Of a stretch of DNA of 64,000 nucleotides, positions 26,893 through 48,384 are shown in pieces. Numbering within the stretch: the first letter of the stretch is position 1; every line of letters begins with the position of its first letter. Under the pieces are notes generated by a model. That model was not told the DNA's origin. It saw only the letters and a list, made by a program, of their open reading frames with translations, and did no database searches. Origin of the DNA: Raillietiella orientalis (lineage: Eukaryota); assembly GCA_036172245.1 (NCBI GenBank), contig JAYWIR010000034.1, positions 558,001 to 622,000 on the forward strand, given 5' to 3'. A program made the translations under genes and the position numbers.

Positions 26893-29800
26893 TGTCTGTC
26901 TGCCTCCTTTCACTTTGTAATTCTCTCCAACCGAGGCTTATCTGTGCAGTCGCATTGCTACTTCTTTCCGGTCTTTTCCGGCGACGGCTACGAAGCAGTC
27001 AGCAGAGGCGACATCAAGAGACAGCCTTGCAAAGAAACGAAGCCAAGAGGCAGAATGGGAGTCAAGAAAATCCAACACGGCTAGTGGACGAGTGAGCTGG
27101 TCGACGCTGACATCCCACGGTTTCACGTCAAAGACAGGACCGTACTCCGGGTGCTCCCCGAAAAACAGATGCTCCCTGCCCTTTGCACAGACGTCTCTCT
27201 CTCAGTGGGAAGCACCAGACGGTGTTCTCTCGCCGCTGTAGCTTCCGCTGCAAAGAACGCTTGCACCTCGTTCCCAGGAAAATGGAGACATTGGACTGTT
27301 CCGGGTGCGGGGCGGTCGAATCGTTGCCTCCCCTGTAGCCGGACTGCGGTGACCTCGAAGAACAGCGGCAGCGGGGTGCTGGCTTCAGCGCTTCTTCGTC
27401 TGGAGGATAAGGACAGGAATTTGCCGCAGCGACTCTTTGCACGAGGCGGACTCGCCCGATGCTACGATCGGAGACGTTGACTTGAGTGCGCGCCATCGCG
27501 GCATTCACAGGAGCTACCCCTCCAGCAGCGGGAAGTCACCCGCCACATTGCGATCAGCAACAGTACGTCGTCTCCTGAAGGGAAAGACTTGAAGGCATAC
27601 GCAACTGGCAGCCGGTTACCGTTGTAAACGCGGACGCCAAGCTGCTAGCCAAACTGTGCGCTGAGCTTGTAAGCCGGTTGTCTGATTTGTGATTATCCCG
27701 AAGCAGACTTACTCTGTTCCCGGGCCAAGCGTGGAAGCCAACGTGCTATTCGCCAGCACATGGTTTCAGTTCCAACAAGAAAGCAGCACGATTGGCAGTT
27801 CGAACTCCGAGTCGTCCGTTGGTTTGGGGTGAGAGGATCGGGCGGTGGCAGTCGACTTGCGCAAGAAATTCGATTGCGCTGAGCAGGAACATCTACTGGA
27901 GCTCCTGGAACGCTCGGGTTTCCCGGCCACCTTAACGACCTATCTGGGTTCCTGCTGGCGCGGAACGCTGATCAACGTCTCTTTCAGCGGAGAGCATGTT
28001 CACAGGATGCCGCGGGATGAGGCAAAGCGACAGCCCTTTGCTCTTCAGCACCCATTCTGAAGCGGTGCTGAGGGCATTCAGGAATACTCTTGCTTCTCCA
28101 TCAAGTTCGCAGCCTGGCACTCCTTCGGCTCGTATTACGCCGACGATCTTCTGCTGCTGCTCCCCATGTCCACCCCGACTTCACTGCTCGATAGCTTCTT
28201 CGATTTGCTGAGTCGGACACAGGCTTGCAAGGGAACAGGGAGAGTTTCGTCGGTGGTACCGACTGGAGCAGCGTGGTCTGGACGGTCAGACTGGATTTCC
28301 TGGAGACCCTCATGAGCTGGAGCGTAACTTACCTTAGCTTTCCATTGGATGACTTCTGCGTTGCAGAATCCTGGTCCGGTCATCTTCAGGAGGCAGAACA
28401 GGCGCTCGGCCCGTTTCCAAGGAGGCAGACGCAACGAGCCACGGTGTGAAACACTTTTGTGGCTTTTCTTTTCCCCCTCCTTCTTTCTGTTTGTCCTCCT
28501 CCCAGAAGTTTTGAGACCTCCTCCGAATCGTCCAGTGGAGCAAAGGGAGATCAAGAGTCTGCCTGAAGCACTTGTGTGCTCCGCCGCACGATCGTGGTCT
28601 CGGCTTCCTGACGCTGGAGCTCCTGGAGCGGTAGCTCCAATGGAGAACTTTGGCCCCAGTGGCAAAGCTCTGGAGCAACGACTGGTGCGTACCGGCACGC
28701 TTCCTGGTCAGACGAGCCGCCGGCCGCAGATGCGTCACGGAGCTGCTGCAGCATATCCCATTGCGGGCTACAAGTGCGACGCGTAGTTGCACTGACCAGG
28801 GACACTGCCCGGATCTCCTGGCCCCGCGAACGCAGTGTCTGATTGCGAAAAACCGTTAGCACGTGTGCAAAGATCAACGAGCCAAGCCTGAAGTTACTGC
28901 CGCACTCCTTGTACAACGACTGCTCGCTGCAGAAGGCCATCGTGCATCCCATCGATTGTGTGTGGGCACGAAGGAGTTCCCTTGCCGCGGAGCTACCTTC
29001 CCTAATGAAGCATCTTGGCAGAAACCTACCGGCGAAATAGGAAGTCTTGTGCAAAGTTTCCTCCAGAAGTAGGATGACCACGGGTCAGCTGACTGATATC
29101 ACGATCTCAAGTCTCCAGTCAAACCGACTTGTGCGTTCGGGTGAGCTGCTGAGGATTCTCTGTCAGGACCTCGAGTGGCCCCCAGCGCTCTTGAACAACC
29201 GCACGCTCCCTCTCAAGGACAGGTGTCGGCGCCCATGCTGTTCCTCTGGGGCCTCTCATGCTGCGCGCGCCGACATCACTGGATCCGGGGATATGTGAAC
29301 CCGAATTGCTGCAGGTGTGGGGAACGTGAAACCTTCCTGCACCTGCTCGTGCTCTTTGTTGGCATTTAACCGTTGAGGAGACGCTTCACAGCGAGGATCC
29401 TCCGGACATCGTGTGGCAACTTCAGGGACTCACTGAGACCCTCCTTCGTGCGCGATGCATTGCCGCTGGCTGCATCGCTAGCAGCTCTTTGCCGCCCACG
29501 TGGCATTGAGGCTGCGTGGAGCGCCGCCAGTGGAGGAAGAAGCCGCACAGGTGCCATTCACGGTTTTTGCAAAAGGCAAGGAGATGACCCCACCTTGAGA
29601 AAACCCGTGAAGAACTTGCCAGCATCCTGGAGAGTATGAGATGGACGGTCTTTAGCAGGCAGTGATCCCTTCCCGTGCTTCTCCAGAGTTATAGATGGTT
29701 ACGTTTTGATTTTCGTTTTTTCCATCTCCTCTGCTGCTGAGGCCATCCTTTCCGGTCTGCGCACCGGTCACTTGGCAAGGCGTGACTGGGACTTGATAAG

Positions 29801-30087
29801 GCCAAAGATCTCATCCTATTGTAATGTTTATTGTTTCCAGGAAACGCTCAGGCGACTTCGGATGAAAAGCCTAGCAGCCGCCTGAGCGAAGACCTGCCGC
29901 AAGAAGTCTCTGAATAGCTGATGCACATCTTGAGGAGGCTGCAGGGCGTTTTTTTCTGTTTATTGTCTCTTCTCGTTCGTTTCGGACTCTCTGCTTGCCC
30001 GACCTGCGTATCGGTGAATCCATCCGCGGGCTTTCGTTTATTTCCCAAATTTTTCTTTGCTTGCTTTTCAAGGAATGAACGCCCAGG
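26893..30087 (+). mobile_element. Degenerate L1/Tx1-like element; copy 2 of the inverted duplication of 3390-6585
   Basis: Near-identical reverse complement of 3390-6585; the ORF track returns the same peptides on the opposite strand. YADD codons near 28138, zinc finger near 29300, cagtgatccctt ORF2 end at 29660. Confidence 0.9.
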
Positions 30088-31966
30088 AGCCATGGGATGG
30101 AAAAGAGGGGGTTATCGACATTGAACGGAGAGGTAGCAGCGTGCTGTAATGAACCGTGGGATGGAAAGTGCTATGAAATCTTGAGGGCACCTGAGATTCT
30201 TCACACGTATGCAGACCGCATGAAGGAAGCGTTGATGTATTCCAACGTTTTACGTATCCTAGATACATCGTGTGGATCATCAGATGCAAAGTGTGGTTCC
30301 CACTGTAGGCGAGAATGCAACGCCTCTGTCTTGGACGAAATAAGTAGGTAGACCTTGGTTTCGGATCTTGTTTACCCACGTTGGGGAGAGAGAAAGCTGC
30401 ACTGAAAACGATTGCCACGAATTCAGATGCATCCTGGTAACCAACCGGAAATTGTCCTTCGAATCGTCATCATTTTTGATGCCTTCCGTGCCTATGAAAA
30501 GAGACAGCTCTAGAGGAGGCGCGACGAAGGAAACTAAGAGAACTGACCCTTCCCTTGTCCTCTAGAGGAGCAAAGGCATTGTTAGAGGCGCGGTATCGAA
30601 GAAATCAACAGGAAGAATCTTAAGACGAATCAAGATCTCTCGCAAGCATGCATGATTGAGCATGGTAGACGCATGATGGGACGTTCCAGAAAACAGTACA
30701 GCCAGGATGCACCTCCGTTGGGTCACTGTCCCCATGAAGTATCTATATGGAGTCTTGAACGCTAACTAGGAGAGAACGAAATATGCAGTTCTCTTTGAAA
30801 GCGGAAATACAGCATTGGTCTCCAGGAACAAACAGATGAATTGCGGAAATGCTGAGAAAGTGACCCCGAAGATTTGCAAGGGACCTACTGCAAATACTCC
30901 AAGTTTTCGATCGTTCCCAAGTATCACGAGATCTACAGAAAAAGAAAGGAAAGAGCCATTTCTTCAAGCTGTAGACTGTTTTTAGGTAGCCATCTGCGCT
31001 GCATTAATGAGGGAAGCTTTCCCGGTAGGGACTTTCGATGTGAAAGAAAACATCGAATTTTTCTGTGTTCCTTTGTCGTACGAATTGACATCTCAGGAAC
31101 AGGCCGCGATTCGGTGATCCCATGAAGAACACAGTACTGTTGCCAAGTGGACAAGTAGACCTTATCCCAGGAGCTGTTCAGATGACACGGAGGGAAGGAA
31201 GGAGCAGGAAGAAGGCTGAAGGAAACCGGGAATGAAACGTAGTCGGCACAGAGGGGAAAATTTGATACGGTAGAAGATCCAATGAGCTCGTGCTCACATG
31301 GAGGATCGTGTCTCCATTGAGACTCGTCTGCAAAGCAGAGATTTGGAAAGCGTACACCCGTGTGATGGAGGGTTCAGCAGATGCAGTTATTGCTGCATTA
31401 AAGCGATGTGAGCAATGCAGGATGCGCATCGGCTCTCTACAAACAGTAACGGAAGACGATGAAAGCCTGGGACCATGCAGCAGCAGCGCCGATTTGCTGT
31501 CACGCCCCCACTGCCAACGAGACCCTATGACCGAATGAATTAACAAATACGAAGGAGTCCTTCACCATGACAACGCTCTGTATTCGCATTCCTTCCTGCG
31601 CTCCCTAATGATCATCTGATCGTCGATGAGGGAGAGGTTTGTTTGTTCGATTTGGGAGGAAAGGGGATGATTCGACAGAATCCCAAAGAATGCGAAAAGC
31701 GGGATTTTCTGTGCGGAATACCAATAGACATTTTTCAGGAGGTCCAGGACCCCCCATTCAGAAAGCAACACCTTCTCATCTTTAGCTCAGTACCTCCTGT
31801 TTTCCTTCATGTGAAACCGATCTACATCGGACTTCGATGACCGGACTACCTCACGTTATGCAGCCATCCACGAAATGGAGTTTCCAAGAGAAACAGAAGA
31901 CTCGATCCACAGGCAAGTCTCGTAAGTTAACTAAGCGCTGCTTCTCAAGTTAAGGCGAGGAAGCCT

Positions 31967-32550
31967 GGCCCACGTTGGCAGCAGTAGTTGTGATTGTGGT
32001 ATCCGCGTGTGGTACCAATCGTTGCGGGATCGAATCCCCACATGAAGGATCGGCGCCAAGAATGGAAGGTGAGTCGTGAGTTTCGAGTTCCCCCGCAGGA
32101 TGACGCTGGTTGGCTCGCGGGCTTTGAGTACGGCACAGGTGGAAACAGGATGCCTCCGTTGACTGACCACAATCCGAAGCTGGCCCTCTGGGGTCCTTCC
32201 TGGAATCAAGGAGGCGATTCCTTTCGAGGTTGTTCCCCTCCTGTTGTGGAAAGGGAGCTATTCCCTCCCCCTCTGGGGGACCTTCCATTGCATTCCATGG
32301 AGCTGTTGATGCCACTCCAGAGTGTCAAGTGCGTTGCTCCCTTCGGGGAGCGGTCCTTCAAAGAAAATTTGGAATGGAAGCTTCCCTTCGGGGTTTTCTT
32401 TGGGAAAGGAAACAAGGAGAGATTCCCTCTGCAGGGTTCCCTCGGGAGAATACCAGGGCTATGGTTTCCTTGGGGATTCCCACCCAAGCGTAAGAGAAAA
32501 TCAGGCTTTCTCTGGAGCCCTCCTGGATTCATAGGGTTGTCCCCCCCATA
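31967..32550 (+). mobile_element. Putative tRNA-derived SINE-like repeat, copy B
   Basis: Head ggcccacgttggcagcagtag (A-box-like) and gttgcgggatcgaatcccca (B-box-like GGATCGAATCC at 32027-32037). Body is homologous to 14870-15438. Confidence 0.5.
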
Positions 32551-33280
32551 ATGCCCACTATCTTGAAGAGTTGACAGGTACCTTCGAGTCGCGTGGAACA
32601 TGGTTTCGTGAGTCCCTAGGCGAACGGCTGGCTTTTGAGTATTTGGTGCAAAGAAAGCCTCCGTGTGGGACCACGAGCACCGCTCAAGTGCCCTGGTTCC
32701 ACGCTGAGTGGAATCTCTTGGTCATTGGTTCTTCGGAAGAGCGGTGTGCTGCGTTTCCGTGATCATGCTCACGGACTCGGAATGTCAGGCACGCTTGTGG
32801 GAAGCACAGAAACGCATGCTCGTAGCAATCTAGAGGATCTCTGTGGGCTAGGGATCGTGTCACGTGATCTTAAAGGAGCACGAAACAAACGGTGCGGAGG
32901 AAACGGACGGAACCACCTACACGGCGCACTCTTCACGTGCGGTTGCTTAGGCTCCTACATCCTAAATATGGTATTGGAAGTGTACCCTTATTCCCCCTTC
33001 CTACCCCTTCGTAGACGAAACTCATTTCCAGCACGTGCACATCACGTTATTCAGATATGAAATCTTGTCTGCATCTCTGGATTTGAGTGATCCACGAAAT
33101 ACAATACACAAATCTCCCTTCGCTACCCTAAATTAGTGTCGGAAGGCGCTCCAAACCACGAGCACACGTTGAAGGGATTTTTTTTCGTAAGGTCGGCCCC
33201 CACTTGCATGTGGTCACCTGGAGGTGTGTCGAGTAATGCATCTAAGAGCCTCTTCCAAAGTTCTAATCGCGATTCGTCAA

Positions 33281-34498
33281 ATTTTTTATTGCTTAGGTAT
33301 ACAATTCTACAAAGCGTTACAGGGGGACTCCTGACATATTTTTAGAATTCCTCCTCTGCTCATTTGGGGAGCCCGTCGCCCCTCAACATGTTGCTTCCTC
33401 AGCGCCTTTTCATCCGTCTCACGAGAGCTGACCGTTGGTCTTTTCCGTCTGTATCTGATTTTCGTTTCTTCGTGCGACGTGGGCTGCACAGAGTATTATC
33501 ACGAACTGCCTTTTCGGAATTCCAAGATCCTGCAGCACTTCTCCGTTACCTGGATCTCAGACTCCCAGGGAGTCAACGATAAAAGCGTGCACCCTGCATT
33601 GTTTCCCCTCTCCGCCTATCTAGAGGGCTACTTCCTTATACTTTTCCTGTTTGTTTCTTCTGGATGTGCTGAATGTCTCTCTTCCATCTTTGAATGAGCA
33701 GCAGGCGTCCAGCACTATTTTCCGGTTTCCTTTCTCCACCACTAAGTCCGATCTTCAGAGGAAATTCGTTCCTGGAGTTCTCTGGTTAGTGGGCACTAGG
33801 GTCCACTTTGCTTCATCCACCGCGGCCCTGCTGACCATTTCTTGGAATGCGCTATGTCGTGCAATGGGCAGGTGAGAGTGCCTCCTGCATCTGCTTGATG
33901 TATGAGGGAATGTTTCGTCTTCTGTCCAGCAGCGCCGACATGCGCGTTCTTCGGGTTCCATCCTGGGCCCAGCCCTAACTGGTAGGACGTTTAGATGGAA
34001 AAGATGAATAAATGCGTAGGATGAATCTGTAATCCTGGAACCTGAGAAATTCTCCATTGGTGAGTAAGAAGTGAGGCATGGTGCATGCCCACACACTGAA
34101 TGACTCTCTCTTGACTGAGGTGCTTTTGAACTAGGGATTGCCATGCAGTGCTCTCACATCAGAAGTAAACTTTCTGCTCATGATGCTGCTGAAGATGACG
34201 CCGTCGACCGTTATATCGGACTCTCCATCATTGAACTTCCAGCGGGCTTTTGTTCTTCTCGAGGCCCCTCATTTTTTGGACCAAAAGGCTCTTGGTATCT
34301 CTGCTGCGCTGTGCGAATTGCCCGGAGAAAGCCCTTGTCATGGAAAGTCCGAGATTCTCATCCTTTCTCGAACGAGCATTTTTTTCTGGACCACTTCCCT
34401 AAGCGTTTCCTGGGCCAATTTCTTCAGCGCGTTGTCTGGGAGATGAATAATTCGAAGCAGTTTCCAGTGGCGAACGTGTCGGATTTATTAGTCATTTG
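33281..34498 (-). mobile_element. 5'-truncated RLE-type (R2 group, NeSL/Utopia-like) non-LTR retrotransposon: post-RT domain, CCHC knuckle, restriction-like endonuclease, short 3'UTR
   Basis: Translation gives FIHLFHLNVLP...CRRCWTEDETFPHTSSRC...IARHSAF...L*RSDLVVEKGNRKIVLDACCSF...RRNKQEKY...VHAFIVDSLGV*DPGNGEVLQDLGI, the RH/PD..D/K..KY RLE signature. Upstream fragments SPDNALKKLAQETLREVVQKK and FWSKK*GASRR. Ends near aataaaaaa at about 33281-33290. Confidence 0.85.
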
Positions 34499-34591
34499 GC
34501 GTAATGATTTGCGCAAGTTAGTTCGTTGGTTGTATATCAAGATTTTGTTAATTATTCTGCGAGTGAGTTGCTTAGTCTTTGTAGGTTGTTG
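34499..34591 (+). repeat. Terminal direct repeat of the viral insert, left copy
   Basis: gcgtaatgatttgcgcaagttagttcgttggttgtatatcaagattttgttaattattctgcgagtgagttgcttagtctttgtaggttgttg; matches 36563-36656 with 5 substitutions and 1 indel. Confidence 0.95.
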
Positions 34592-35188
34592 TCTTTAGCT
34601 CAACAGTTTGAATTTGTTCGTCTTATTGGAGTAAGGTGGACTTTTGAACAATTATCGGAAAGTTATACTGATGAAAGTGAAGTTCCTATTGGATCGTTTA
34701 ATGTGGAAGGAAATTACAGTCATGTGAATTACGTTATATTGACTAATCCAGCTGAGGAGTAGCCTTTTAATAAGTTTTATGATTTGAAGTTTAGCGAATG
34801 TATGAAGAATTTTGCTTGGCATCACTTCATTCTTCTACAAGTTTAAGCAAAGGGATGAGTCTGCATATAGTAGATGTTGTGTGGAGAAGCAGATTGTATT
34901 GACCTCGAAGGGCGACTCTGTACTGTATATAGTCGTCCAAGATGTCCATGGTTAAGCACTGAAAAAACCACTGGAATAAACTCTTTCCTGCTGATCGGAC
35001 GTCCCATCATTTGTAAACACATCGTTGGATTTAAGGTACCAGCCGAGTGGACGCAAGACAAAACTATTAAAGAAGTCCAAGGGATTAACAAAAATGCACC
35101 AATGTTTCGAATTTGGAGAAAATTTTATTTTCAATTGAAGAGAGCCAGAGACATTAGATATTATAGAGAGGATACGTATTTGTTATGA
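34499..35188 (+). pseudogene. cap: CRESS virus capsid protein, central and C-terminal part
   Basis: VVYQDFVNYSASELLSLCRLLSLAQQFEFVRLIGVRWTFEQL...SRPRCPWLSTE...MFRIWRKFYFQLKRAR...YLL*. Resembles circovirus-type jelly-roll capsid motifs (F-YYRI-KVKV-F, PW, terminal YVQFR strand). Overlaps the N-terminal part via the terminal repeat; has internal stops. Confidence 0.75.
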
Positions 35189-36149
35189 CTGATTTGTAGT
35201 GTGTTTACTTCTTTCGTTGATGAAGTGGACTATCCATCTATCGAACTCATTTTTTCATACAGTGAGGATCCATGTTGGCGAAAATCATGACATGTGGACT
35301 TGGGAACATCTTTACATGTCCTTGACATTTTGTTGAGAATGGTATTCCATTTTTTATGGTTTCCATCAACCCATAATTTATCATCTCCTATACATCTTTT
35401 GTGAGGTCCATAATAACTATCTTCTGTCCATCGTACATATAAGTGGCATCAGCTTTTTTGCAGTTGTTCAAGTAAAGACCATCGTACTTTATACATATAT
35501 GTATATATATATATGTTTTGCAGCTGTTGTCTTGCCTGAATTGCCCTGATAGTCGGTGAGCCAGTGGATGTCTCTATCGTTTGGTTCAGTGGAAATGATG
35601 TCAATTAAATTCTTTTGCCATTGTGGTAAAGCCTTTCCTTCTATTGGATCTTGGTTTTAGAATTTTGGAGATCGAATGGTGTCGTTTGTGAATTGCCTAT
35701 GTTTGTCGTACACATCAGGCTTTCCTTTCCATATCCATTTCTCACTTTTTCCATTGTGTATCCAATCTTGTATCTGGAAATATCTGTTGTTGATAACTGT
35801 TTCAAATAGATATATTTGCACCTGTTTGTAGATGTTTGTTTTCATTTCCGTTTGTAGTCGTCCATATATCCAAAGGTTCTTTGTCTTCTTTCGTGCAGTA
35901 ATCTGCAGCTTGTTTTGGAGTTCCTCTGCTTGATTCTATGTGCGCTCGTCTGAATTCTATTCTATTTTTTTTAGTTTTGGTATTGCTGTCGGATCTACTA
36001 GTTGAAAGCATCCTTGGATATGTTTGGTTCCTTGGATGCCAATTTCTTTTGCTAGAATTGCATGAGAACATTTTTCTTTTAACTAGGTTTCAAGTAATTC
36101 TTCTTCGTTGTTAGTGTATGCACCAGTTGTTGCTCACAGCGTAAGGCAT
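35183..36149 (-). pseudogene. rep: CRESS virus replication initiator protein (HUH endonuclease plus SF3 helicase), pseudogenised
   Basis: ATG at 36149 (MPYAVSNNWC, degenerate motif I); motif II TKHIQGCF (36011-36022); AHIESSRGTPKQAADYCTKE motif III (35886-35900); WQKNLIDIISTEPNDRDIHWLTDYQGNSGKT Walker A (35528-35545); IVIMDL Walker B; INYGLMETIKNG..FSTK; PHVMIFAN motif C; DRW arginine finger; TAA at 35183-35185. Several stops and frameshifts. Confidence 0.95.
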
Positions 36150-36200
36150 CTTGTTTTGAGGGTGCTGGTTCGTACCCTGAGGTTGTATATAGTAGTTGTC

Positions 36201-36234
36201 AAGGTCAAGAGGATAGTATTACCCTCTTGACCTT
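36201..36234 (+). other. Rolling-circle replication origin stem-loop with nonanucleotide TAGTATTAC (36214-36222)
   Basis: aaggtcaagagg-atagtattac-cctcttgacctt: a perfect 12-bp stem with the canonical circovirus/nanovirus nonamer in the loop, lying between the Rep and Cap starts. TATATA at 36186-36191 lies on the Rep side. Confidence 0.96.
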
Positions 36235-36302
36235 TGAGTTGTTTACAAGTATTCTGCGTTGAGGAAAATTGATTCCCGGAAGGAGGGGGGGGTTATGTCG
36301 TG

Positions 36303-36656
36303 ATGGTGTATGTAACTCGTGGTAGATATCGTTCTTATCGAAGGCGTTTGTTGGCGTATCGTAATTTGAGGAGGCGACGTGCTGTCGCACGTCTCCGCAG
36401 ACGTAATTAAAGGTCGCGTAATTATCGTGGTCGTAATTATTTGCGTAAATTAGCTTGGACTGGTCCTTTGGTTCGTTTGTCTAGTAAATTGAAGCGTGGA
36501 TGTTTGGATGTTACAAAACGGCATATTGTGGTTACGGATACTGTGTATTTGAATTTTTTGAAGCGTAATGATTTTGCGCAAGTTAGTTCGTTGGTTGTAT
36601 ATCAAGATTTTGTTAATTATTCTGCGGGTGATCTGCTTGGTCTTTGTGGGTTGTTG
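36303..36656 (+). pseudogene. cap: CRESS virus capsid protein, Arg-rich N-terminal part
   Basis: MVYVTRGRYRSYRRRLLAYRNLRRRRAVARLRRRN*RSRNYRGRNYLRKLAWTGPLVRLSSKLKRG...VVYQDFVNYSAGDLLGLCGLL; a single premature TAA at 36408-36410 interrupts an RNY repeat. Confidence 0.88.
36563..36656 (+). repeat. Terminal direct repeat of the viral insert, right copy
   Basis: Matches 34499-34591 at an offset of 2064-2065 nt. Confidence 0.95.
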
Positions 36657-38342
36657 GCGCACAGTCGTACTGATGTGCCCACCAAAAGGTTGCATTTTTT
36701 ATCGCAGCAGCTGCAGATGGAGGCAAGAAGGCCAGGTGAAGGGGCATTCCACAAGTCCAGCAGGAGATGGAGTTGGAGAAGGAAAGCCTTTAGAGTTAAG
36801 GTCCACAGTGTTTTTCTCTGTTTTACGGAGGGTCACCCCCTAGATTGCAGAATCCAGCCGGTGCCTTAATTGGAATCCTCCTTTTGCCTTCACGAGAGGA
36901 CCGACTCCTTCCTGAAGGGAGTTGCCACCAGGAGCTCATCCCGTTTGCATGATCTCCAGTCCAGAGAAGACTGCGAAGCTCCGCCACTTTACCTGCGAGT
37001 GCTTCAGCAGAGTTCGAACTTTGAGAAAACAGAGTCGTGTAGGCATGTGGGGGTCATGTAGGCACTCAGTCTTGATGGCTCTTAACGGAAAGCCTCGAGC
37101 AACTGTCAAGGGACCAGGAGCTCTTTCTGGATTTGCGGAGGCAGAGTGGATCGCCATTGGATCTGCTCGCTCCCTCGCAAGCATCCTGCGTTGGTGCCCC
37201 TCCTGCGCTGGACTGTACTACACAATGAGCCCCGACACAAAATGACGGAGAAGGTGCAGTGGGAATATGGAATCGTAATCACATTTTCATCTGGATCGCG
37301 GTTCTTTTCATTCCCGGCGAACATGCTCGGACAGGATACCCTTCCTCACCCTTGTAACGAGCAGAAACAAACTAGGACTCTTCTTCCCGGATAAGCTACT
37401 TACTCTCGAAGCACCCACCACCCTGTGCTGCGTTCTCAGAGCCGCGCTGGCAGCGTGTCATCCGTGGAAGCGGAACGACGAGGCTAAGCGGAGCATGGAA
37501 GTGGATCCACGTTACCATAGGAAACTGTACAAGGAATTGTCTGCATCATGAAGGAACTTGCTAGAGAGAGATACGCTCCAATCCGGTGACCCTAGGCTCT
37601 CCCTCACGCATTGAGTGCTTTTTAATTACTTTCCATCGTCTCTTCCGCCCTTCTCTCTCTGCAGCCATTCCTAGCGGATGCATGGGCTCGTGGCTGCACT
37701 GTCCTGGTAGCCGTGAGGAGGGAGCGTTTCAAACAGGTGACGCCGGGACGTTCACTCGAAAATAAACTTACAGGTCACTGAGAACTGGGTTCACAGAAAA
37801 CAAAAACCAAAAAAAAAAAACCTCACAGGAAATGACCCGGCAAGCTCTTAAAGAAGTCGGAGTGGGAGGGAGGCAAAACAAATAATTTAAAAAAAAAAGA
37901 GTGGTGGGATGGGAAGGGATTTTTGTTTCGAACCACTTCGTTTTCCTAGAGCTGGAGTTGTATGTTGGTGATTTCTCTGGCGTTATTCCTGGAATGAAGT
38001 TACCTTGCAGCCGTCATCATCAAGGCGGTTACCATGCGTGTGGCCTCTCTTTGCTGCACTCGAAACTCCAGCGCGTAGCGGACTGTGACGATGGTGCGAA
38101 TGCAGCATCTCGTGGCGATCACGGCGTCCTGCCGGTCGAACGTGAATCTGCGCGCTCCACGAGGTCAGGAACCCGTGAATTGTGTGCTAGTGTTTGGCAG
38201 CTGCCCGAAGGCCCCAGAACCTAACGGGCCAGCTGTCACCTCCCTGGGAGTAGGGGCGGAAGTCTCACTACTCGGGGTGAGGGAGGTGGATGCTGTTCTC
38301 TCCAAAGAAGGATCGTTTTCCCACAGCGAGAAGAACTGGGGC

Positions 38343-40200
38343 ATGGTGGCTGCGGCACCCTTGCCTCCGGCAGCTGCCGAAGCGTAGGCCTACCACGTCT
38401 CAGGCCATAATCCATACCTGAGATATAAGGTAGGCCCTTTGTATGACCTTTCGGTAGCGCGCTTCTTCTCGGAGGAGCTGCAGAGACTGCAAATCAAACC
38501 GGAAGAGCTTTGCGCGCTCTCCGTTCTGGCCGAGGAAAGGGTCGTTGAGGTGGCTTTCAAGGACCCGAGCCTGGCCTAGCGACTGTCGCGAACCCCGATC
38601 GTGATCGGAGGGCGTAGCTCCTCCCGTAAAAGAGGACCGCTCCCTGATCTTGCACTCACCGGCATTACGGTAAGGACGACCAAGAAGGTGGTCCACCAGA
38701 AATTGGAGGAGTTGCAGGACGGTGCACGCACTGTGGGCGAAGCCCCGCATCTTCCCTGAATACCAGGGATCTGCATGTCTGATCACTAGCCTCGCAGCGG
38801 CACGCATTACCGTCCACGAAGGGGGGACGCTACCCTACAGATTGGACGTCGACGGGGAACCCGTCGACATCTGGTACGAAGGGATTCTCCTTGTGTGCGC
38901 CCACTGTGGCAAGTCGCAGCACCGGAAGAGGGGGTGCCCCGACATCGAGTGCTACCGTTGCTGCGCGAAGGGACGCATCCAGTTCGTGGGCCCCTCTTAC
39001 GGCCGCCATCCGGTCAAACATGCGTCGGCTATAAAAAAGAAAAAAAAGAGCAAAAAAAATAAAAATAAAAATAAAAAGAGTAAGAAAAATAAGAAGAACC
39101 GAGCGCTCACAGCTGATTCCACATCGAAGACCATTCTGGAAAGTGACCAGCAACCAGCGGCATCCACCACACCTGCACCTGAGGCAAGCAGCCATGTAGA
39201 AGCAGAATAGAGGGAAGAGGAAACAAGCTGAGTGCAAGTTTTCTTTTTTCCACTATTTGTTTTTTCCGGTAGGAAAAAACAAATAGTGGAAAAAAGAAAG
39301 GGGAAAAAACCGCCGATTGCTCGCGAAGTCATTCCACGACTCGCGAAAATAAAAAACGTGGAAGCTGTGGCGCAGCACATCGTCTCACCTCATAGGGAGA
39401 GTAGCAAGGTCGCACAACCCGCAACCGGGAGCACGGTAGACGGGACCTGCAACATGCAGGTCGTCAAGGTTGTTGACCTAGCGGCAGCCCTGCAAACCTC
39501 CCGGCAACCTCTGGAAAGCGCCCTAGAGTCATGACGCTCGCGGCCACGAGAGTCGCTCGGGACGCTATACGCAGGGCCACCGCGCAAGAATAGCTCTACC
39601 TGACCTCCGAGGTAGAGACGAACGCTGAACTGGCGCCTCCCGTGCAGGGACTACGCCACAAGACCGCGCTCCATGTAGAAGCGGTCCACAGGGAAGTGTC
39701 CCTGCAAGGGGGGAACGACGCTGGTTCTGACCCAAAGATGGAGGAAGGCTCACAGGACTCCTCCATGGAGACAGCCCCGCCCTTCCCGCCGCAAGGTGAA
39801 GAGGGCATAGGGCGTGCCACGGAAGTCCGGGAAATGCCTTCCCCCAACGAGAACGCGCCACCTGCAAGCCAGAAGGGAGCCGCACTGCCAGATTCCCAGA
39901 AGCAATGCGCGGAGTCGCGTACTCCCGTCGCTTGCGCGTGCCCCTTTGGAACGTGAACGGCCTGCAAGGCGTCGGGAAGAGACGCGACAAAGCCAACGTC
40001 CTACGAAACTTCGACTTGGTGCTCCTCCAAGAGATTCACGTGATCTCGGACGAGGATGCCGCCGACTTCGAATGGATCGCGGGTGGAAAGCTTCATTGGC
40101 GGTGTGGCACCAGTAAATCGAGAGGGGTGGCATTCCTGATACAGCCAGCCACCATGCGTGCGGTGCATAGCGTGCGATTCGACGTTGTCACCTGGTCACG
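38343..40200 (+). mobile_element. 5' half of an L1/Tx1-like element: ORF1 with two CCHC knuckles plus the start of the ORF2 APE endonuclease
   Basis: LPYRLDVDGEPVDIWYEGILLVCAHCGKSQHRKRGCPDIECYRC (ORF1), then LWNVNGLQGVGKRRDKANVLRNFDLVLLQEIH...SKSRGVAFLI (APE motifs WNVNG, LQE, RGVA). Confidence 0.88.
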
Positions 40201-40402
40201 CCAGAGCGTTTATTAGAAGCTTGACCATTTTTGCGGTATAAGGCCGCAAAAATGATCAAGTTTTTAATTCTTTGAGTTGAAGTAGCCCCCAGTGATGAAG
40301 GAAGCAAGGATCCTTTCCCTGAAGTGGCAAGAGTCGGCGCTGCTGCTGTTGCAACGGGTCTCCCCCGCCGCGCGCGCTGCCACCACTGGACGCTGGGGAG
40401 TT

Positions 40403-42550
40403 CCCACCCGGTCACACCGGGGCGTTTATTTCTAAACACAGTATATTTGCGGTACTAGGCCCGCTACGGCCAATGGTTCATGGTGCCTGCCGGGTCGCCG
40501 GCGCGCAGACAGGCGCGACTCTCCTCGGCAGCGGTGGGGAATGGGGAAAGAACAAAAATAAAAATAAGAAGAAAACAAAAAAAGAAACACTCCGGTGGTC
40601 TGGGAAGGGATCACTGTCCACCAAAGGAAGAGACAATCCTTTCCAGGATGCCCTCGAGGTCCCTTTGCATGGCTCCCAGAAGGGACCAGCCGATCGCGAT
40701 TCGCAGGTAGCGACCCGCGTGTACGATGGGATCCCTATCGCTGCTTCCTCTGTTGGCTGCGCTCCACTCAGCCACAATCCCTCGAAGGCAGTAGAGCGCT
40801 GCCAGGGTTGAGGCTGGTGGCAGGGCGTCTCGCACGAAGAGGAGTCTCACAACGTCTCTGGGGGTACTGCCGACCGGCATAGGGAGGGTCGTAGCATAAC
40901 GTTCCCACAAGGGCCGGAGGGCAGCTCAGTCCACTAACAGGTGGGGAAGGGATTAATTTTCCCCGCACACGGCACAGTTCTGTCCCACGTTCCCCAACGT
41001 CCAGTCGTGGCGGCGCGCGTTGCAGGGGGTACCCCAGTGCAACAACAGCGCCGTTTCCTGCCACTTGAGGGCAGGGTGGATGCGTCTCTAAATAACGGGG
41101 GCCACTCTAGGTCATCCGCCGGGATGCCAAGCAGCTCGCCCCATCTCCGTATTCCATGCGGGTGAACGCTTGGGGTTGCGGCGTCTGCCAGTTCCCTCAT
41201 TGTCCACCCGCTTAGATCCTTCTCCTTGCCCGCTATCCGGCAGGAGACTTGCCATCTCGGCTTCCGGCTGTTTTGAAGCGCCCTTCGTAGGAAGGGCAGC
41301 CCTGTGGCCAGTGGGGTCGTCTCCGCCCAAGTGCTTCTGGCGGGACACTCGATCATGTTCTGCAGCGTGCAGTGGGTGTAAATGCCGGTGCGCAGGCGGT
41401 TGCAGGATTCTCCACTGATGTGTTTCAACTTTGCCCACGTTCCAACTGTTTCTTCCAGCCATGCGCTGGAGTTGGCGGGGCTGCAGGCCATCCATCCGTT
41501 CTCCTTTGACAGGGTGGCCATGCGTCCCAGGAGAAGTCCTTATCTTCTTATTTTCCGGCCGGGGCACAGAAGAAAAGACGCGAGTCCTTCAGTCCCGGAC
41601 ACACGTCTGGCGAGAAGGCGTGCTGGAACGCACCAAGGGGTGCTCCACATTTTCGCTGCGATGGCTAGAGTACGCCACCGCAGCTGTGTTTCCATTCGCT
41701 CCATCGTCAGGACGCTAAGACCTCCGTGCCGACGTGGAGCGCTCAAATTCTTTAAAGGCAAACGAGACCTCCTGCCGCCCCACAGGGGGATGCGTAGGAG
41801 GTCCTTTGTTCTTTTTTTCAGTTCACGGGGTACGGGGCAAACAAAAAGCAGGGGGCGAAGGAGGGGGGCCGCGAACGCGTTTCACACCGCAGCCCGTTCC
41901 GTCAAGTGAAGCTTGTCTTCCAGGAACGGGCCGATCGCTGACTCCACTTTTTGGAGACGACCTGACCAGGCTTCTGACTGGCAGAAGTCCCCCAACGTAA
42001 CGCCGAGGTACTTCAAGTACCTCTCCGTGGGGATCCCCAGGCGGATTCAATCAGGTCGTCCTGCCCACTTTGCACCAACCGCAACCAGCGACGACTTCGT
42101 TCTGCTCACCCGTAGTCCTGTCCACGGCTCAGCAAGTCGAAGAAATCTTCGACTGCCGAAGCCGGGGCGGACATGGGCAGCAGGAGCAAAAGATCGTCAG
42201 CATACGCCGACACGGCCGGCGTACCTGGACACGAGCTTGAAAGGGCAGCCAATGTCACCCTGTATGCTCTCAGCACTAGTTCGAAATAGGTGCTAAAGAG
42301 CAGGGGACTCAGGCTGTCGCCCTGCCGGATGCCGCGCCTCACCGGCACGCCGAACACGTGCTGTCCTCTGAAAAACAAGTTGATGATCGCATTGCGCCAG
42401 TAGGCGCGCAGGTAGGCCGTTAAGGTGTCCGGGAAGCCCATGCGATCCAGGAGCTCCAGAAGGAGTTCCTGGTCCACGCAATCGAACGCTTTGTGCAGAT
42501 CGACTGCGATCGCTAGAGCCCCCTTCCCTTCCCGGTCGTCCCTTCCCTGC
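40403..42550 (-). mobile_element. L1/Tx1-like element: RT core to 3' end
   Basis: AVDLHKAFDCVDQ...RGIRQGDSLSPLLF...SAYADDLLLLL, FKYL, GGLS, zinc finger remnant, ORF2 end Q* at about 40611, and 3'-terminal aataaacgccccggtgtgaccgggtg at 40405-40430. Confidence 0.92.
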
Positions 42551-42659
42551 CCCGCTGGCGCTCCCAAATCAGGGTTGCCGACATTCCGTTCTTTTTCCTT
42601 TTTTTCCTCGACCATGTAAGAGTTTAAATAAATGTCACGGCGTACCCGGGTGGCATCAT

Positions 42660-43013
42660 CAAACCCAGGGGGCAGGCTGTGCATGGGGAACTCCTCGCAG
42701 AATTCGCGGACAGAGGCCTTCATGCGGTCCCACTCCGTGAGATTCCGGAGGGACAGCTTGCTGGCATCCTCCAGAGGATGACGGACCCTCCCAGCAGACA
42801 GTGATCCCTTACCGTTCCCACCCCAGTTTTGTTTATTTTTTTGTTTTCTTTTTGTTTCAATCCCCCTCCCCTCTGCTGCCGAGGTCGACCACACCGGTCT
42901 GTGCACCGGGAACCCGGCAGGCTGAATGTATCTAGGACGTGGCTGGACTACTGGTCCAGTCACAGTTTATAGAGGTTTGTTCGTAAGAATAAACGTCCTG
43001 GAGCAACCAGGTT
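42660..43013 (+). mobile_element. Short 3' end of an L1/Tx1-like element
   Basis: LAGILQRMTDPPSRQ* ending in cagtgatccctt (42799), T-rich UTR, and terminal aataaacgtcctggagcaaccagg (42988-43011). Confidence 0.75.
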
Positions 43014-43059
43014 TCCAGCGAGATTCCGGAGGGTGACGCCTCTCAGTAATCGGCGGAGA

Positions 43060-43625
43060 TGTTCCTTCGCACCTGAGATCCGAGTCCAGTCCCCGGGTAG
43101 ACGCCACGCCCTGGATGGTGGCCCTTTGTCGCGAAGCATAATCACGAAAATCAACCGGAAATGGTCGGACAGCGTCGATGGAATTCCCTCGTCTGCCGAC
43201 CCTGGGTGTCAAGGAAAACGTGGACGACGCTTTGGATCATTACCGGGAGGTAACCCAACAAGTTGCGCGCCCGCATCGCCGCGCACAACTCTTTGGCCGC
43301 GTCTTTTTGCCCGCATGGCACACCTGGCAGCAGACAGATGTTAAAATCTCTGCCGATCAGGTGTGCCTTGCGTACGTTTGTATCAGCCAGACAGTCGCAC
43401 TTCAGGGTTTCAAGGAACCGGGAACGTTCCCCGTACCCTCATCCGCCGCTAGGAGCGTACACGTTTGTCACGACAACGTCGATCTAGTCGGACCATCTGA
43501 GGATCAGCTGGCCAACCCGACTATCCTTGTCGAAGCGTACGCCCTTGACGACAGTGTCAACTGCTGGCTTCGCAAAAAAAGCGACGCCACAGGTGTTGCG
43601 AGCGCCACATTGCCAATACAACCAA
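43060..43625 (-). mobile_element. APE endonuclease fragment of an L1/Tx1-like element
   Basis: LYWQCGARNTCGVAFFAKP...VRFDKDSRVG...VVTNVYAPS...HLIGRDFNICL...SIDAV. Confidence 0.85.
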
Positions 43626-43649
43626 CCAAACTGCACCATCGCAGGAGCA

Positions 43650-44460
43650 ACACGACCCATAGGCGGCTGGAGGACTTGCGAGCTGGCAGACGCCGTCACG
43701 CCTCGCCACATCCCGAATGGACTCCTTCGGTGGAGTGACCACTTGAGTGTGCCACCCGAAGAACTTGGGATCCCTCCTCGTGCGTGGACACTTCCGTGTT
43801 CCTTTAACTTGGAAGCAGGACGTCATCATGCTGGTGCATTGGGGTTTTCACTCCAACCAGCGGACGAACCGTGTTTCTGGGGGAGTTGTCTCCCCGAACT
43901 GTAAGCGGTGCGGGGACGTGGAAACGCTCCCGCACCTGCTCCTGGACTGCGGTGCCTCCAAGGACTGTGACGGAGGCTGGCTTCAGCTCTCCTGCACCAG
44001 GGGAACACCGCAGGAGACTTGATGCGCCGCTTCTTCACGCCAGGCGGCCTGTCCTTAAGTGCTGTCATCACAATGGTCTGTTGCACCCGCGTCATCGACA
44101 AGGCCCACCAAGAGCTGGAGAAGCTGGCGATTCTTAGACAGGCCACCGGAATAGCCGGCATGAACATGACGTCGGCTGCCGAGTGGGCCCATCTTCCAGA
44201 AAACGTTAGGAGCGAATCACCGGCATCCATAGCCGGTTCTGAAGGAAAGGAACGGTCCAAACCAAAGAGCCCTGTCCTCTCCCCTTCCCATATCTTTATT
44301 TCTATTTTTTATATGTGTATTTGTGGTCCCCTCCCTCCCGTTCCGGACTTTCAGTTTACCGACCTGCGTGTCGGGGATCCTTCTATTCGTTATTCTGTGT
44401 CCTTTGTCCGGGAACTCTGTTCCTGTATCGTTTAGTAATAAACTTCTTCCCTCACCTGGG
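43650..44460 (+). mobile_element. ORF2 C-terminus and 3'UTR of an L1/Tx1-like element
   Basis: VSPNCKRCGDVETLPHLLLDC zinc finger followed by a pyrimidine-rich UTR and aataaac at about 44437. Confidence 0.85.
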
Positions 44461-45170
44461 TGAGAAACAACCGACCCCTTACGATCCTCTCTATCTCCTG
44501 GGCGTTCTCCGCAGTGAGCACGTGGATCTCTTGCAGGAGCGCCAGGTCGAAGTCACTCAGGGTGTCGGCCGTATCCCGTCTGTTGCCGTCGTCGCGCAGC
44601 TCGTTGACGTTCCAGCAGGCTACGCTGATCCGACGGCGACAGGCGAGCCCAGGTGCTAACCCTGGGAAAGTGACAGTGAGTCGCCCGCCACCTGGTCGGG
44701 TAGGACGCTAGGAGGAGGGGGTACATCGCTCACCGCTTCTCCCTCCTCCATGGGGGCCGAATGGTCGGCAAAGCCGTGCGAAGGAAGGGGGTTTTCATCC
44801 ACCTGCTCTTCCTCCTCCATGGGGGTCGCCAGCTGCACGGTGTCGGGGAGTGAGAGACTCCTACCCTCCGTTCCCATGCTGCCGTCTTCCCCCTCGTCTG
44901 CCAGTTCATCCCCTTCCTTCTTGGTCCGGATGCGCCTCTTGGAATTCTTGGACTTGCTTCCTGTCTTCTTAGGAGGCGCCTCCGCTGAGGTGGATGCACT
45001 TCTGGCATATGGGTCGGCCTCACCTGCCTCCGGAGTCTTCCTCGCTGCCGGCCTTTGCAAGACCTTTCGCGAGTTTTTCTCACGGCCTTATAGTTCGGCC
45101 GCGAGTTCTTCCGCCACCTGCTGAAAGGCGGCCTCCTCGATTTTGTCGAGCGCGTCGCGCAGCTCGCCCT
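44460..45170 (-). mobile_element. ORF1 low-complexity tail plus endonuclease N-terminus of an L1/Tx1-like element
   Basis: SVACWNVNELRDDGNRRDTADTLSDFDLALLQEIHVL preceded by a K/E/P-rich ORF1 tail. Confidence 0.8.
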
Positions 45171-47533: not shown

Positions 47534-48165
47534 GCCTGCCGGGTCGCCGGCGCGCAGACAGGCGCGACTCTCCTCGGCAGCGGTGGGGAATGGGGAAAGA
47601 ACAAAAATAAAAATAAGAAGAAAACAAAAAAAGAAACACTCCGGTGGTCTGGGAAGGGATCACTGTCCACCAAAGGAAGAGACAATCCTTTCCAGGATGC
47701 CCTCGAGGTCCCTTTGCATGGCTCCCAGAAGGGACCAGCCGATCGCGATTCGCAGGTAGCGACCCGCGTGTACGATGGGATCCCTATCGCTGCTTCCTCT
47801 GTTGGCTGCGCTCCACTCAGCCACAATCCCTCGAAGGCAGTAGAGCGCTGCCAGGGTTGAGGCTGGTGGCAGGGCGTCTCGCACGAAGAGGAGTCTCACA
47901 ACGTCTCTGGGGGTACTGCCGACCGGAATAGGGAGGGTCGTAGCATAACGTTCCCACAAGGGCCGGAGGGCAGCTCAGTCCACTAACAGGTGGGGAAGGG
48001 ATTAATTTTCCCCGCACACGGCACAGTTCTGTCCCACGTTCCCCAACGTCCAGTCGTGGCGGCGCGCGTTGCAGGGGGTACCCCAGTGCAACAACAGCGC
48101 CGTTTCCTGCCACTTGAGGGCAGGGTGGATGCGTCTCTAAATAACGGGGGCCACTCTAGGTCATC
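47534..48165 (-). repeat. Near-identical copy of LINE segment 40485-41116
   Basis: Constant offset of 7049 nt at both ends; only one substitution noticed by eye (ggcatag vs ggaatag). Confidence 0.92.
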
Positions 48166-48384
48166 TGTTGGGATGCTCAGCAGCTCGTCCCATCTCTGCA
48201 ATCTTCACGGAAGGACTCTCGAGGTCGTGGCGTCGGCCAGCTTCCTCATGGCCCAACCGCTTAACCTCTTGCCCCTGCCTGCTATCCGGCAGTAGACTTT
48301 CCACCTCGGAGTTCGGTTGCTGCCGAGCGCCCTCCTCAAGAAGGGCAGCGCCTTGATCAGTTGAGTCGTCTCCTCCCACTGTCG

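Follow-up and report, generated by a model that had tools for sequence, protein, structure and literature searches.

How did a complete genome of a small circular virus come to lie against the broken end of a retrotransposon? In the window analysed here, a stretch of 64,000 nucleotides (64 kb), a degraded viral insert 2158 nt long, which amounts to 1.045 times the 2064-nt circular genome of a Rep-encoding single-stranded DNA virus, adjoins with its left end the 5'-truncated end of a dead retroelement of the restriction-like endonuclease (RLE) type, and the element points away from the virus (Table 1).

Table 1. Positions of the viral insert, the retroelement remnant and their flanks in the window.
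Feature	Position	Strand	Basis or remark
Presumed 3' untranslated tail of the element	33281..33427	-	Ends in AATAAAAAAT (33290-33281, minus-strand reading); ORF homology stops at about 33428
Coding remnant of the RLE element	33428..34457	-	Homology to relatives and to solved R2 proteins
Stretch from the end of firm element homology to the viral start	34458..34498	-	41 nt
Endogenous viral element	34499..36656	+	Both break points inside the putative Cap gene
Terminal direct repeat, left copy (Cap codons)	34499..34591	+	Repeat alignment
Putative Cap gene, remainder	34592..35190	+	Same frame as the left repeat copy
Rep gene remnant	35250..36075	-	Pfam profiles, match to a viral-contig Rep, frame reading
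Origin-like hairpin	36201..36234	+	Folding; loop with TAGTATTAC
Putative Cap gene, 5' part	36297..36656	+	Translation; continues into the right repeat copy
Terminal direct repeat, right copy	36563..36656	+	Repeat alignment
Segment immediately right of the virus	36657..36693		37 nt; no significant sequence match
Candidate flanking repeat ATTTTTTATCGC	36694..36705	+	11 of 12 bases shared with ATTTTTTATTGC at 33281-33292; not significant

The limits of the viral insert can be read from the insert itself. Its two ends carry a direct repeat (93.6% identity over 94 columns, E 1.65e-34, blastn within the window), and because the identity of the copies breaks off sharply at the outer side of both, the viral start at 34499 and the viral end at 36656 are exact; the first viral base is thereby fixed where the initial annotation had placed it. 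At base level 88 of 93 positions are identical, with four transitions, one transversion and one one-base indel (K2P 0.056), and all five substitutions fall in the last 30 nt of the right copy, beside the right junction. The copies are spaced 2064 nt apart and the Cap frame is unbroken across the join. By this terminal redundancy and the continuity of the frame the source genome of the virus was circular, and the redundancy amounts to 94 nt. The GC content of the insert is 0.35–0.38, against 0.47–0.55 in the flanks, and its translations contain about 8 in-frame stops in 595 codons. Elsewhere in the window no viral sequence was found (nothing by blastn; best E 0.031 by tblastn with nine viral pieces), and no viral amplification is seen within these 64 kb. 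Since viral sequence is absent to the left of the element as well as from the rest of the window, the locus is not simply a longer viral array interrupted by the element.

The minus strand of the insert carries the remnant of a predicted Rep with an HUH endonuclease domain. Two Viral_Rep matches, collinear and in neighbouring frames (profile positions 9–61, E 0.0012, and 55–82, E 0.036), each of which is individually under the Pfam cut-off, are followed collinearly on the same strand by an RNA_helicase match (E 0.012, 16.5 bits against a Pfam cut-off of 21.5), and a GNSGKT Walker A motif is readable in the frame adjoining the latter; the two together mark a possible superfamily 3 helicase downstream of the endonuclease domain. 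The Rep also matches the Rep of a viral contig with 52% identity over query residues 32–73 (E 4e-11), and a Pfam scan of 16 short ORF pieces returned a single weak Viral_Rep match. Among the motifs, which are spread over several frames, we take HIQG and YCTKE to be those of the HUH endonuclease, GNSGKT to be Walker A, VIMDL Walker B and MIFAN motif C. The gene shows at least four frame changes and at least two in-frame stops, and an (AT)n run occupies 35487-35521. The hairpin, placed where the 5' ends of Rep and Cap diverge, has a stem of 12 bp (-11.6 kcal/mol, z -5.5; equalled by 0 of 200 shuffles) and, at 36214-36222 in its loop, the nonanucleotide TAGTATTAC on the Cap-sense strand, which occurs once in the window where 0.04 occurrences are expected. 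Such a hairpin, bearing a nonanucleotide and flanked by divergently oriented Rep and Cap genes, is a feature of elements derived from the Cressdnaviricota. The 5' part of the Cap gene has an arginine-rich N-terminus and one in-frame stop; in the remainder the first stop lies at 34763-34765, and about five further stops are met if the frame is continued to 35190. The gene presumably reached past 34762, and the 3' ends of Cap and Rep would then converge at about 35190-35250. No Pfam family, Circo_capsid included, was found on the six Cap-strand frames, and the putative assignment of Cap is drawn from position, polarity and composition.

The affiliation of the virus is harder to narrow down. Neither its Rep nor its Cap has a recognisable similarity that would place it in the Circoviridae (Circovirus or Cyclovirus): the PDB chains matched at E<=1 by two Rep frames included no circovirus Rep or Cap, and the sole Rep chain among them was 5xor_A (E 0.58). 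Word-index homolog searches with the N-terminal piece of Rep (against longer proteins) and with the Rep frame bearing X at the stops gave no match, and the ESM Atlas gave no usable one. The viral-contig scans yielded one relative (L001), which is distant and has a coat of the geminivirus type. A nonanucleotide on the Cap strand is a cyclovirus-like polarity, and at this locus we read it as a resemblance only. The genus Krikovirus of the family Draupnirviridae is a lead taken from PMC10193959. When identity was sought through the cap-rep-cap spacing, the spacings in Table S4 of that paper were similar and none fitted cleanly.

By homology, the neighbour of the virus is the C-terminal part of a non-LTR retrotransposon of the R2 superfamily, on the minus strand. 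The remnant retrieved 556 proteins at E<=0.001, and RVT_1 lies upstream of the matched part in 10 of the 11 relatives scanned, with no other enzyme family listed. All 16 proteins tried align within 33428-34090, and the relative P0005 reaches 34454. Residues 922–1086 of the solved R2 protein 9nl2_A align to the remnant (E 1.1e-5), as do R2Tg and R2Bm, and P0005 matches solved R2 proteins with E 1.6e-68. An R2-superfamily reverse transcriptase upstream in the same ORF, with no APE endonuclease, is true of the relatives, while the copy at the locus lacks the reverse transcriptase through truncation. The position of the cut follows from P0005 (1298 residues), whose RVT_1 ends at residue 830 and whose residues 943–1044 align to 34457-34146 (E 1e-4); it lies about 100 residues past the reverse transcriptase domain, which bears out the earlier view of an element truncated just downstream of this domain. 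What is left comprises the post-RT linker/thumb region, a CCHC zinc knuckle (C..C...ET..H....C....RH) and a PD-(D/E)XK restriction-like endonuclease to the end of the ORF, with about 6 in-frame stops in 343 codons and at least one frameshift near 34150. Other copies of the family in sequencing run X1 differ from this one by 15–20% (12–17 differences per 61–101 nt). A word-index search with the fragment against longer proteins gave no match. The label NeSL/Utopia-like, given initially, gained no support: four U2-derived words (PMC4640811), sought on both strands of 33000-33450 with up to two mismatches, had no match at the junction and a single internal one at 33355; Rfam over 28000-42000 gave no snRNA; and no duplication of the 20-bp size is present, the best candidate sharing 11 of 12 bases. 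A 20-bp target-site duplication is reported for the reptile Utopia, and duplications are rarely recognisable at non-U2 insertions in crocodilians (PMC4640811).

At the left junction, the initial annotation had traced the element frame up to 34498, with no spacer before the virus. The viral start stands, but element homology extends only to 34457 (E 1e-4) and, weakly, to 34478 (P0145, E 0.06), and the frame supported by homology differs from the open frame traced to 34498. The intervening 41 nt may be element sequence or filler; compared with the virus and with the right flank they score no better than 22 of 200 and 20 of 200 shuffles, respectively. The 37 nt to the right of the virus were compared with the virus, the element and the left flank, in no case with a significant match, and in five comparisons templated filler was not significant at either junction. 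A target-site duplication around 33281-36656, which had been proposed as a check, was not detected at a significant level: the best and sole candidate (Table 1) is equalled by 28 of 300 shuffles, and no exact word of seven or more bases is common to 36657-36696 and 33101-33450. Nor does the element resume after 36656. The 155 family proteins produced 76 matches at E<=0.01 in 36657-45000, of which 0 fall in 36657-40749, and Pfam found 0 families in the three minus frames of 36657-39000 and in nine flank frames. The simple insertion that had been named as the refuting case is therefore not what the right side shows, and a plain viral insertion into a longer resident copy is disfavoured. The right flank was also considered as more of the same element, either continuing or inverted, and was rejected as such on just scattered matches with E>0.09.

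For the composite as a whole we favour a single compound insertion event by which virus and element entered together, and we give this reading an even chance; both the joint arrival of the two parts and the enzyme responsible are what we infer. The element would have started target-primed reverse transcription at its presumed 3' end, near 33281, and cDNA synthesis would have halted about 100 codons past the reverse transcriptase domain. Viral DNA would then have sealed the open 5' junction, bridging the gap from the truncated cDNA to the chromosome end upstream; the viral piece was more probably a double-stranded replication product of greater than unit length, added by host end joining. Capture by end joining is more probable than copying by the polymerase of the element. 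The left viral end lies 0–41 nt from the last recognisable element sequence, with the polarity expected for an addition at the 5' junction, and since the remnant is the sole RLE-type fragment in the 64 kb, a chance abutment of a viral end and its 5' end within 41 nt would be unlikely. The density of stops in the two parts is comparable (about 6/343 codons in the element and about 8/595 in the virus). In the parts of the following reports used here, microhomologies, extra bases and upstream deletions are described at 5'-truncated R2 junctions (PMC2718515), integrated rep-plus-cap circovirus elements are ascribed to viral DNA joined via host repair (PMC3205384), and tandem whole circovirus genomes are present in carp (PMC6372831). 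Counting against a joint event, the composite is not surrounded by a significant target-site duplication, the adjacency was chosen after the fact, stretches of unassigned sequence (34458-34498 and 36657-36693) border the virus on both sides, and the element fragment may be a piece of DNA and not a target-primed insertion. The age signals, which are loose, also count against it: the viral repeats differ by 5.6% (five substitutions, with a wide error) as against 15–20% between other copies of the element family and this one.

Two separate events are a serious contender, to which we assign a little under an even chance. In one version ordinary end joining brought the virus in first, and the element then landed at its left margin or close to it, target DNA being lost in the process; that R2-type insertions can remove target sequence on the upstream side is described in the part of PMC2718515 used here. 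In the other version the virus hit a resident element, the upstream sequence of which was deleted then or later. No significant target-site duplication links the virus to the element, and the divergence of the element copies, set against that of the viral repeats, is compatible with an element copy older than the viral insert. Endogenous viral elements beside transposon debris are, moreover, common, and this locus was selected for its oddness. Both versions, however, require an additional deletion or an exact strike on an end already present; nothing viral was found to the left of the element and nothing of the element to the right of the virus, and with a single RLE-type fragment in the window the abutment is improbable as a coincidence.

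We consider it unlikely that the reverse transcriptase of the element copied the virus. It would have left its own RNA about 100 codons past the reverse transcriptase domain, switched to a Rep-sense viral template and followed it for 1.045 turns before the cDNA was joined; in a possible mirror form, second-strand synthesis from the upstream chromosome end would have run along a packaged Cap-sense circle before moving over to the truncated first-strand cDNA. A switch of the cDNA onto a Rep-sense template had been proposed at the outset. Its geometry survives, since the element is on the minus strand and 5'-truncated with the virus at its 5' end, so that onward first-strand cDNA would need such a template, and the polarity agrees with it; for the copying itself, however, we found nothing positive. 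The reverse transcriptases of RLE and APE LINEs jump between templates without homology, copy DNA as well as RNA and displace strands (PMC6895275, in part), and with circular RNA as template that of Bombyx R2 shows some rolling-circle synthesis (PMC11331410, in part). Among other causes, synthesis that became error-prone towards its end would suit the clustering of the repeat differences in the last 30 of 93 nt. On the other side, the viral part is not mRNA-like: it is longer than one unit and includes the origin as well as both genes, an AATAAA of the Rep strand at 35129-35124 is read through, and there is no A-run at the junction. Because the nonanucleotide is on the Cap-sense strand, the packaged strand would be the opposite of the template required, and the free single strand in infected cells would be of a polarity unsuited to extending the first strand. 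There is, furthermore, no 3' end on a closed circle for the enzyme to jump onto, and concatemeric replicative DNA accounts for the redundancy without a reverse transcriptase. That a stalled R2-type polymerase switched, in the nucleus, to a circular single-stranded DNA virus genome and wrote it complete into the germline in just over one rolling turn is unlikely. LINE-1 template-switch chimeras such as U6-L1 and the L1-made copies of RNA-virus genes have a 5'-truncated sense LINE fused at its 5' end to unrelated sequence; in both, the partner derives from RNA, a poly(A) tail is present and the target-site duplications are clear. Unlike these, the locus has no poly(A), no RNA-derived partner and no significant target-site duplication flanking the whole, the last two being among the marks by which LINE template-switch chimeras are recognised.

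One low-coverage sequencing run (word share 0.06) contributes 31 contigs that match the window, and three of them are identical to it (33909-34081, 35594-35744 and 35913-36063), the run being perhaps not independent of the assembly. An assembly artefact, whether a joining of unlinked real sequences or the collapse of a longer tandem viral array, is very improbable: no contig of this run spans 34498/34499 or 36656/36657, but both parts are degraded host-resident sequence, identical contigs occur in the run, and the repeat copies differ at six positions and hence are not a collapsed identical repeat.

The entry of small circular DNA viruses into animal germlines is poorly documented and is commonly explained by the end joining of replicative DNA. 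If a virus was indeed joined to the unfinished 5' end of a retrotransposon, its integration would be tied to the breaks or the polymerase of mobile elements, and if the template-switch reading were true, endogenisation of DNA viruses would have a route independent of both viral mRNA and host end joining. The locus is a single junction; it is suggestive and hints at a joint chromosomal entry, and a link to mobile elements is testable across other viral fossils via LINE 5' ends.

As a virus fossil, the insert belongs to a kind that has been catalogued before from the genomes of reptiles. Whole-genome endogenous krikovirus (Draupnirviridae) and circovirus elements are described from saurian genomes (Kinsella and van der Hoek 2023, PMC10193959), and, in the part of that source used here, they resemble our locus in having degraded Rep and Cap adjacent in viral order, low GC and many stops. 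Cap-rep-cap layouts like the present one are listed for Pelusios and Podocnemis turtles (PMC10193959 Table S4), and one turtle entry of 2248 nt with cap matches at both ends also exceeds one unit. The main text of that paper does not link endogenous viral elements to the ends of retroelements and mentions retrotransposition for poxvirus gene capture. The LINE-1 fusions of carnivore endogenous circovirus elements (Dennis et al. 2019, PMC6372831) join, as here, a circovirus-type element to a non-LTR retrotransposon, and the tandem circovirus genomes of cyprinid fish are likewise germline copies of over unit length. In the sections of that report used here, the carnivore fusion is invoked to explain how an APE-type LINE-1 later expanded the copy number of rep fragments, and not the original capture; our locus differs from it in having an RLE-type stump as partner and a complete viral circle. 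Truncated RLE copies with foreign bases at the junction, as at our locus, are known from the 5' junctions of R2 and R1 (Stage and Eickbush 2009, PMC2718515), and template jumping, DNA copying and strand displacement from the R2 reverse transcriptase (Khadgi et al. 2019, PMC6895275). As far as the parts of these two papers used here extend, the extra material consists of non-templated bases or short duplications of the target gene (PMC2718515), in contrast to a 2.2-kb viral genome, and the acceptor is either the target on the upstream side or the end of some other linear template (PMC2718515, PMC6895275), in contrast to a circle.

Further to the right, reverse transcriptase signals at 42.2–42.5 kb (minus strand) and 45.3–45.9 kb (plus strand) were considered as parts of the element and rejected; they are parts of LINE copies of the APE type, in which an APE motif precedes the signal in frame. 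Nearer to the virus, 37112-37139 matches the reverse transcriptase region of the APE-type LINE copies of the window (89% over 28 nt, E 7e-4), and the right flank also gave an 18-residue peptide match (E 0.005 among about 1500 queries). The LINE-like matches of the right flank are possibly old LINE debris on the plus strand.

The viral insert (34499–36656) is set apart from its surroundings by base composition, with a GC fraction of 0.35–0.38 versus 0.47–0.55 in both flanks. Base-level alignment of the two copies of its terminal direct repeat revealed a sharp loss of identity at 34499 on the left and at 36656 on the right, so that the insert is 2158 nt long and amounts to 1.045 times a circle of 2064 nt. 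Between the two repeat copies there are four transitions, one transversion and one indel (K2P 0.056). All five substitutions fall within the last 30 of the 93 aligned bases (34563–34591 / 36628–36656), four of them being A/G or T/C exchanges, and a one-base indel is the sole difference in the first 63. The a priori chance of such clustering, (30/93)^5, is about 0.004; possible explanations are that the inner part underwent gene conversion, that synthesis close to the right junction was error-prone, or that two slightly different viral templates were used.

Two collinear minus-strand pieces in neighbouring frames match the Pfam Viral_Rep profile (profile positions 9–61, E = 0.0012, and 55–82, E = 0.036), and an RNA_helicase piece comes next (E = 0.012); each of these matches is singly below the Pfam cut-off, and the set as a whole is in order. 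With the Rep of a viral contig, the N-terminal piece shares 52% identity (E = 4e-11). When the frames are read, the Rep motifs are distributed across four or more frame changes, and in-frame stops occur. A microsatellite, (AT)n/(TA)n, occupies 35487–35521, inside the helicase region and directly after the Walker A motif. Rep and the plus-strand gene diverge from either side of the origin hairpin. The loop of this hairpin carries the nonanucleotide TAGTATTAC, which occurs once in the 64 kb against 0.04 expected and stands on the Cap-sense strand. The plus-strand gene has an arginine-rich start at ~36297 and, reading through the repeat, keeps the same frame from 34592 on; it matched no Pfam family, and we call it a putative Cap by its position and composition. 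Sequence comparison did not place the virus within the Circoviridae, and a krikovirus affiliation may be taken as a lead from the literature. Both viral break points are inside Cap, away from the origin nick site, so integration by the viral Rep itself is disfavoured.

Features of the viral insert and of the LINE copies to its right (window coordinates)
Feature	Position	Properties
Terminal direct repeat	34499–34591 and 36563–36656	93.6% identity over 94 columns, E = 1.65e-34
Origin hairpin	36201–36234	12-bp stem; −11.6 kcal/mol, z = −5.5, equalled by 0/200 shuffles
APE-type LINE inverted pair	40485–41329 and 47534–48378	one arm pair, 92.9% identical over 845 nt
APE-type LINE RT	42.2–42.5 kb (minus) and 45.3–45.9 kb (plus)	

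The minus strand of the left neighbour (33410–34153, with X at stops), searched against 1.84 billion representatives, retrieved 556 proteins at E ≤ 0.001, 159 of them at E ≤ 1e-10. Pfam placed an RVT_1 domain upstream of the matched C-terminal part in 10 of the 11 relatives scanned and listed no other enzyme family. Among solved R2 proteins, the fragment matches the end that holds the zinc knuckle and the restriction-like endonuclease (RLE; 9nl2_A residues 922–1086, E = 1.1e-5; also R2Tg and R2Bm), and the full-length relative P0005 aligns to such proteins at E = 1.6e-68. These alignments and the RVT_1-bearing relatives identify the left neighbour as a minus-strand R2-superfamily element, of which the 3' part is present. 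Its named relatives are from turtle, crayfish and nematode, hosts that do not give its clade placement. Neither U2-like target words nor a 20-bp duplication, both used as criteria after PMC4640811, gave support to the NeSL/Utopia label of the initial annotation. Beside the presumed element end, GTTCTAATC at 33261–33275 (+) matches part of an oomycete U2 fragment (PMC4640811); we treat this as chance: a 3' target of the element would lie on the other strand, and about 0.5 occurrences of a 9-mer are expected per 64 kb. The top-scoring relative, P0001, is an annotated turtle protein of 1107 residues that matches the fragment in four separate stretches and is the sole one of the scanned relatives without RVT_1; it looks like a gene model spanning several RLE-element remnants.

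The tblastn matches of all 16 family proteins tried fall within 33428–34090. With 155 family proteins, homology reaches upstream to 34457 (residues 943–1044 of the 1298 in P0005, E = 1e-4), with a weak extension to 34478 (E = 0.06). The RVT_1 domain of P0005 ends at residue 830, so the element is cut about 100 residues after the RT domain, in agreement with the truncation just downstream of RT that had been proposed. That the element runs right up to 34498 is not supported: the final 41 nt ahead of the virus could not be assigned, and the frame that is open to 34498 is different from the one supported by homology. The 3' boundary placed at 33281 turned out to have the word AATAAAAAAT as its sole basis.

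The composite of element and virus (~33281–36656) has the polarity to be expected had material joined a target-primed insertion at its 5' junction. We consider it an even chance that the composite goes back to one compound event, in which viral material would have been added at such a junction of the inserting element. Within this reading end joining is favoured over polymerase copying: viral DNA would have been captured either at the 5' junction while it was open or at a shared break. Inserts longer than one unit are the expected product of concatemeric replicative DNA. The mechanism points weighed here lead us to rank a compound event above separate events or an artefact, and end joining above copying. 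The junction is a good candidate for a targeted survey rather than a demonstrated mechanism.

Two separate events are a serious possibility, and each history of this type needs an extra deletion or an exact strike on a pre-existing end. No further viral sequence was found left of the element or elsewhere in the 64-kb window, so the locus is not simply a longer viral array interrupted by the element. Insertion of the virus into a resident element, the alternative raised in the initial annotation, was probed through family RT-coding sequence on the minus strand past 36656, and none was found. Pfam gave nothing on the three minus frames of 36657–39000, and the 155 family proteins produced 76 tblastn matches at E ≤ 0.01 in 36657–45000, none of them in 36657–40749. 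The best flanking duplication of the composite (33281–33292 versus 36694–36705, 11 of 12 bases) was equalled in 28 of 300 shuffles and is not significant; no templated filler was found at the composite junctions. In-frame stops are of similar density in the element (~6 in 343 codons) and the virus (~8 in 595, Cap being read to 35190). Other copies of the element family in one sequencing run differ from the window copy by 15–20% over 61–101 nt, which may reflect subfamilies or an older copy, and the age signals of element and virus are loose.

Copying of a viral template by the element RT seems improbable to us, although the enzymology is permissive. LINE reverse transcriptases can switch templates with no need of homology, accept DNA as template and carry out strand displacement (PMC6895275), and the Bombyx R2 RT performs some rolling-circle synthesis on circular RNA (PMC11331410). 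The first-strand cDNA is the window plus strand from 33281 rightwards, and a continuing polymerase would need a Rep-sense template, as the initial annotation proposed. Viral RNA is a poor candidate, however: the insert spans the origin, both genes and the Rep-strand AATAAA at 35129–35124, it is longer than one unit, and an A-run is absent at the junction. First-strand copying of packaged DNA also fits badly, because the nonanucleotide is on the Cap-sense strand and the packaged strand should thus have the opposite of the polarity needed. Had second-strand synthesis copied the packaged circle instead, this objection would fall away; such a mirror version is a candidate only. An assembly artefact is very improbable; the same sequencing run contains pieces identical to the window inside both element and virus, none of them across a junction.

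Virus fossils of this kind are already known. Published accounts describe whole and tandem genomes in carp (PMC6372831) and cap-rep-cap layouts in turtles, one spanning 2248 nt (PMC10193959 Table S4). No account of an RLE-type element bearing an entire circular-virus genome at its 5' end came up in the full-text literature accessible to our search, which was confined to sources outside subscription journals. Carnivore circovirus fossils are likewise joined to LINEs (PMC6372831), but there the partner is LINE-1 and the fusions are tied to later amplification rather than to capture.

The right flank of the virus may represent old plus-strand LINE debris, judging by its sequence. At 37112–37165 (+) there is a remnant resembling the RT 'RQG.SPLSPLLF' region of the LINE copies in the window (28 nt at 89%, E = 7e-4; 18 residues at 56%). 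In the APE-type LINE copies, ORF1 is gag-like and has zinc knuckles from 38674; the C-terminal motif C..C...ET..H....C of their ORF2 also draws RLE-family protein matches. RT signals at 42.0–42.5 kb and zinc-knuckle signals at 43.5–44.0 kb, considered as a continuation of the element, belong to the inverted pair of these LINEs. A dispersed repeat of the left flank (32141–32471) recurs inverted 17 kb away at 15012–15305 with 73–82% identity, and is uninformative on the former contiguity of the composite's flanks. Finally, 28000–30088 and 3390–5478 form an inverted duplication of 2.09 kb with 99.1% identity, to be explained by a segmental duplication of recent date or else by duplication in the assembly.
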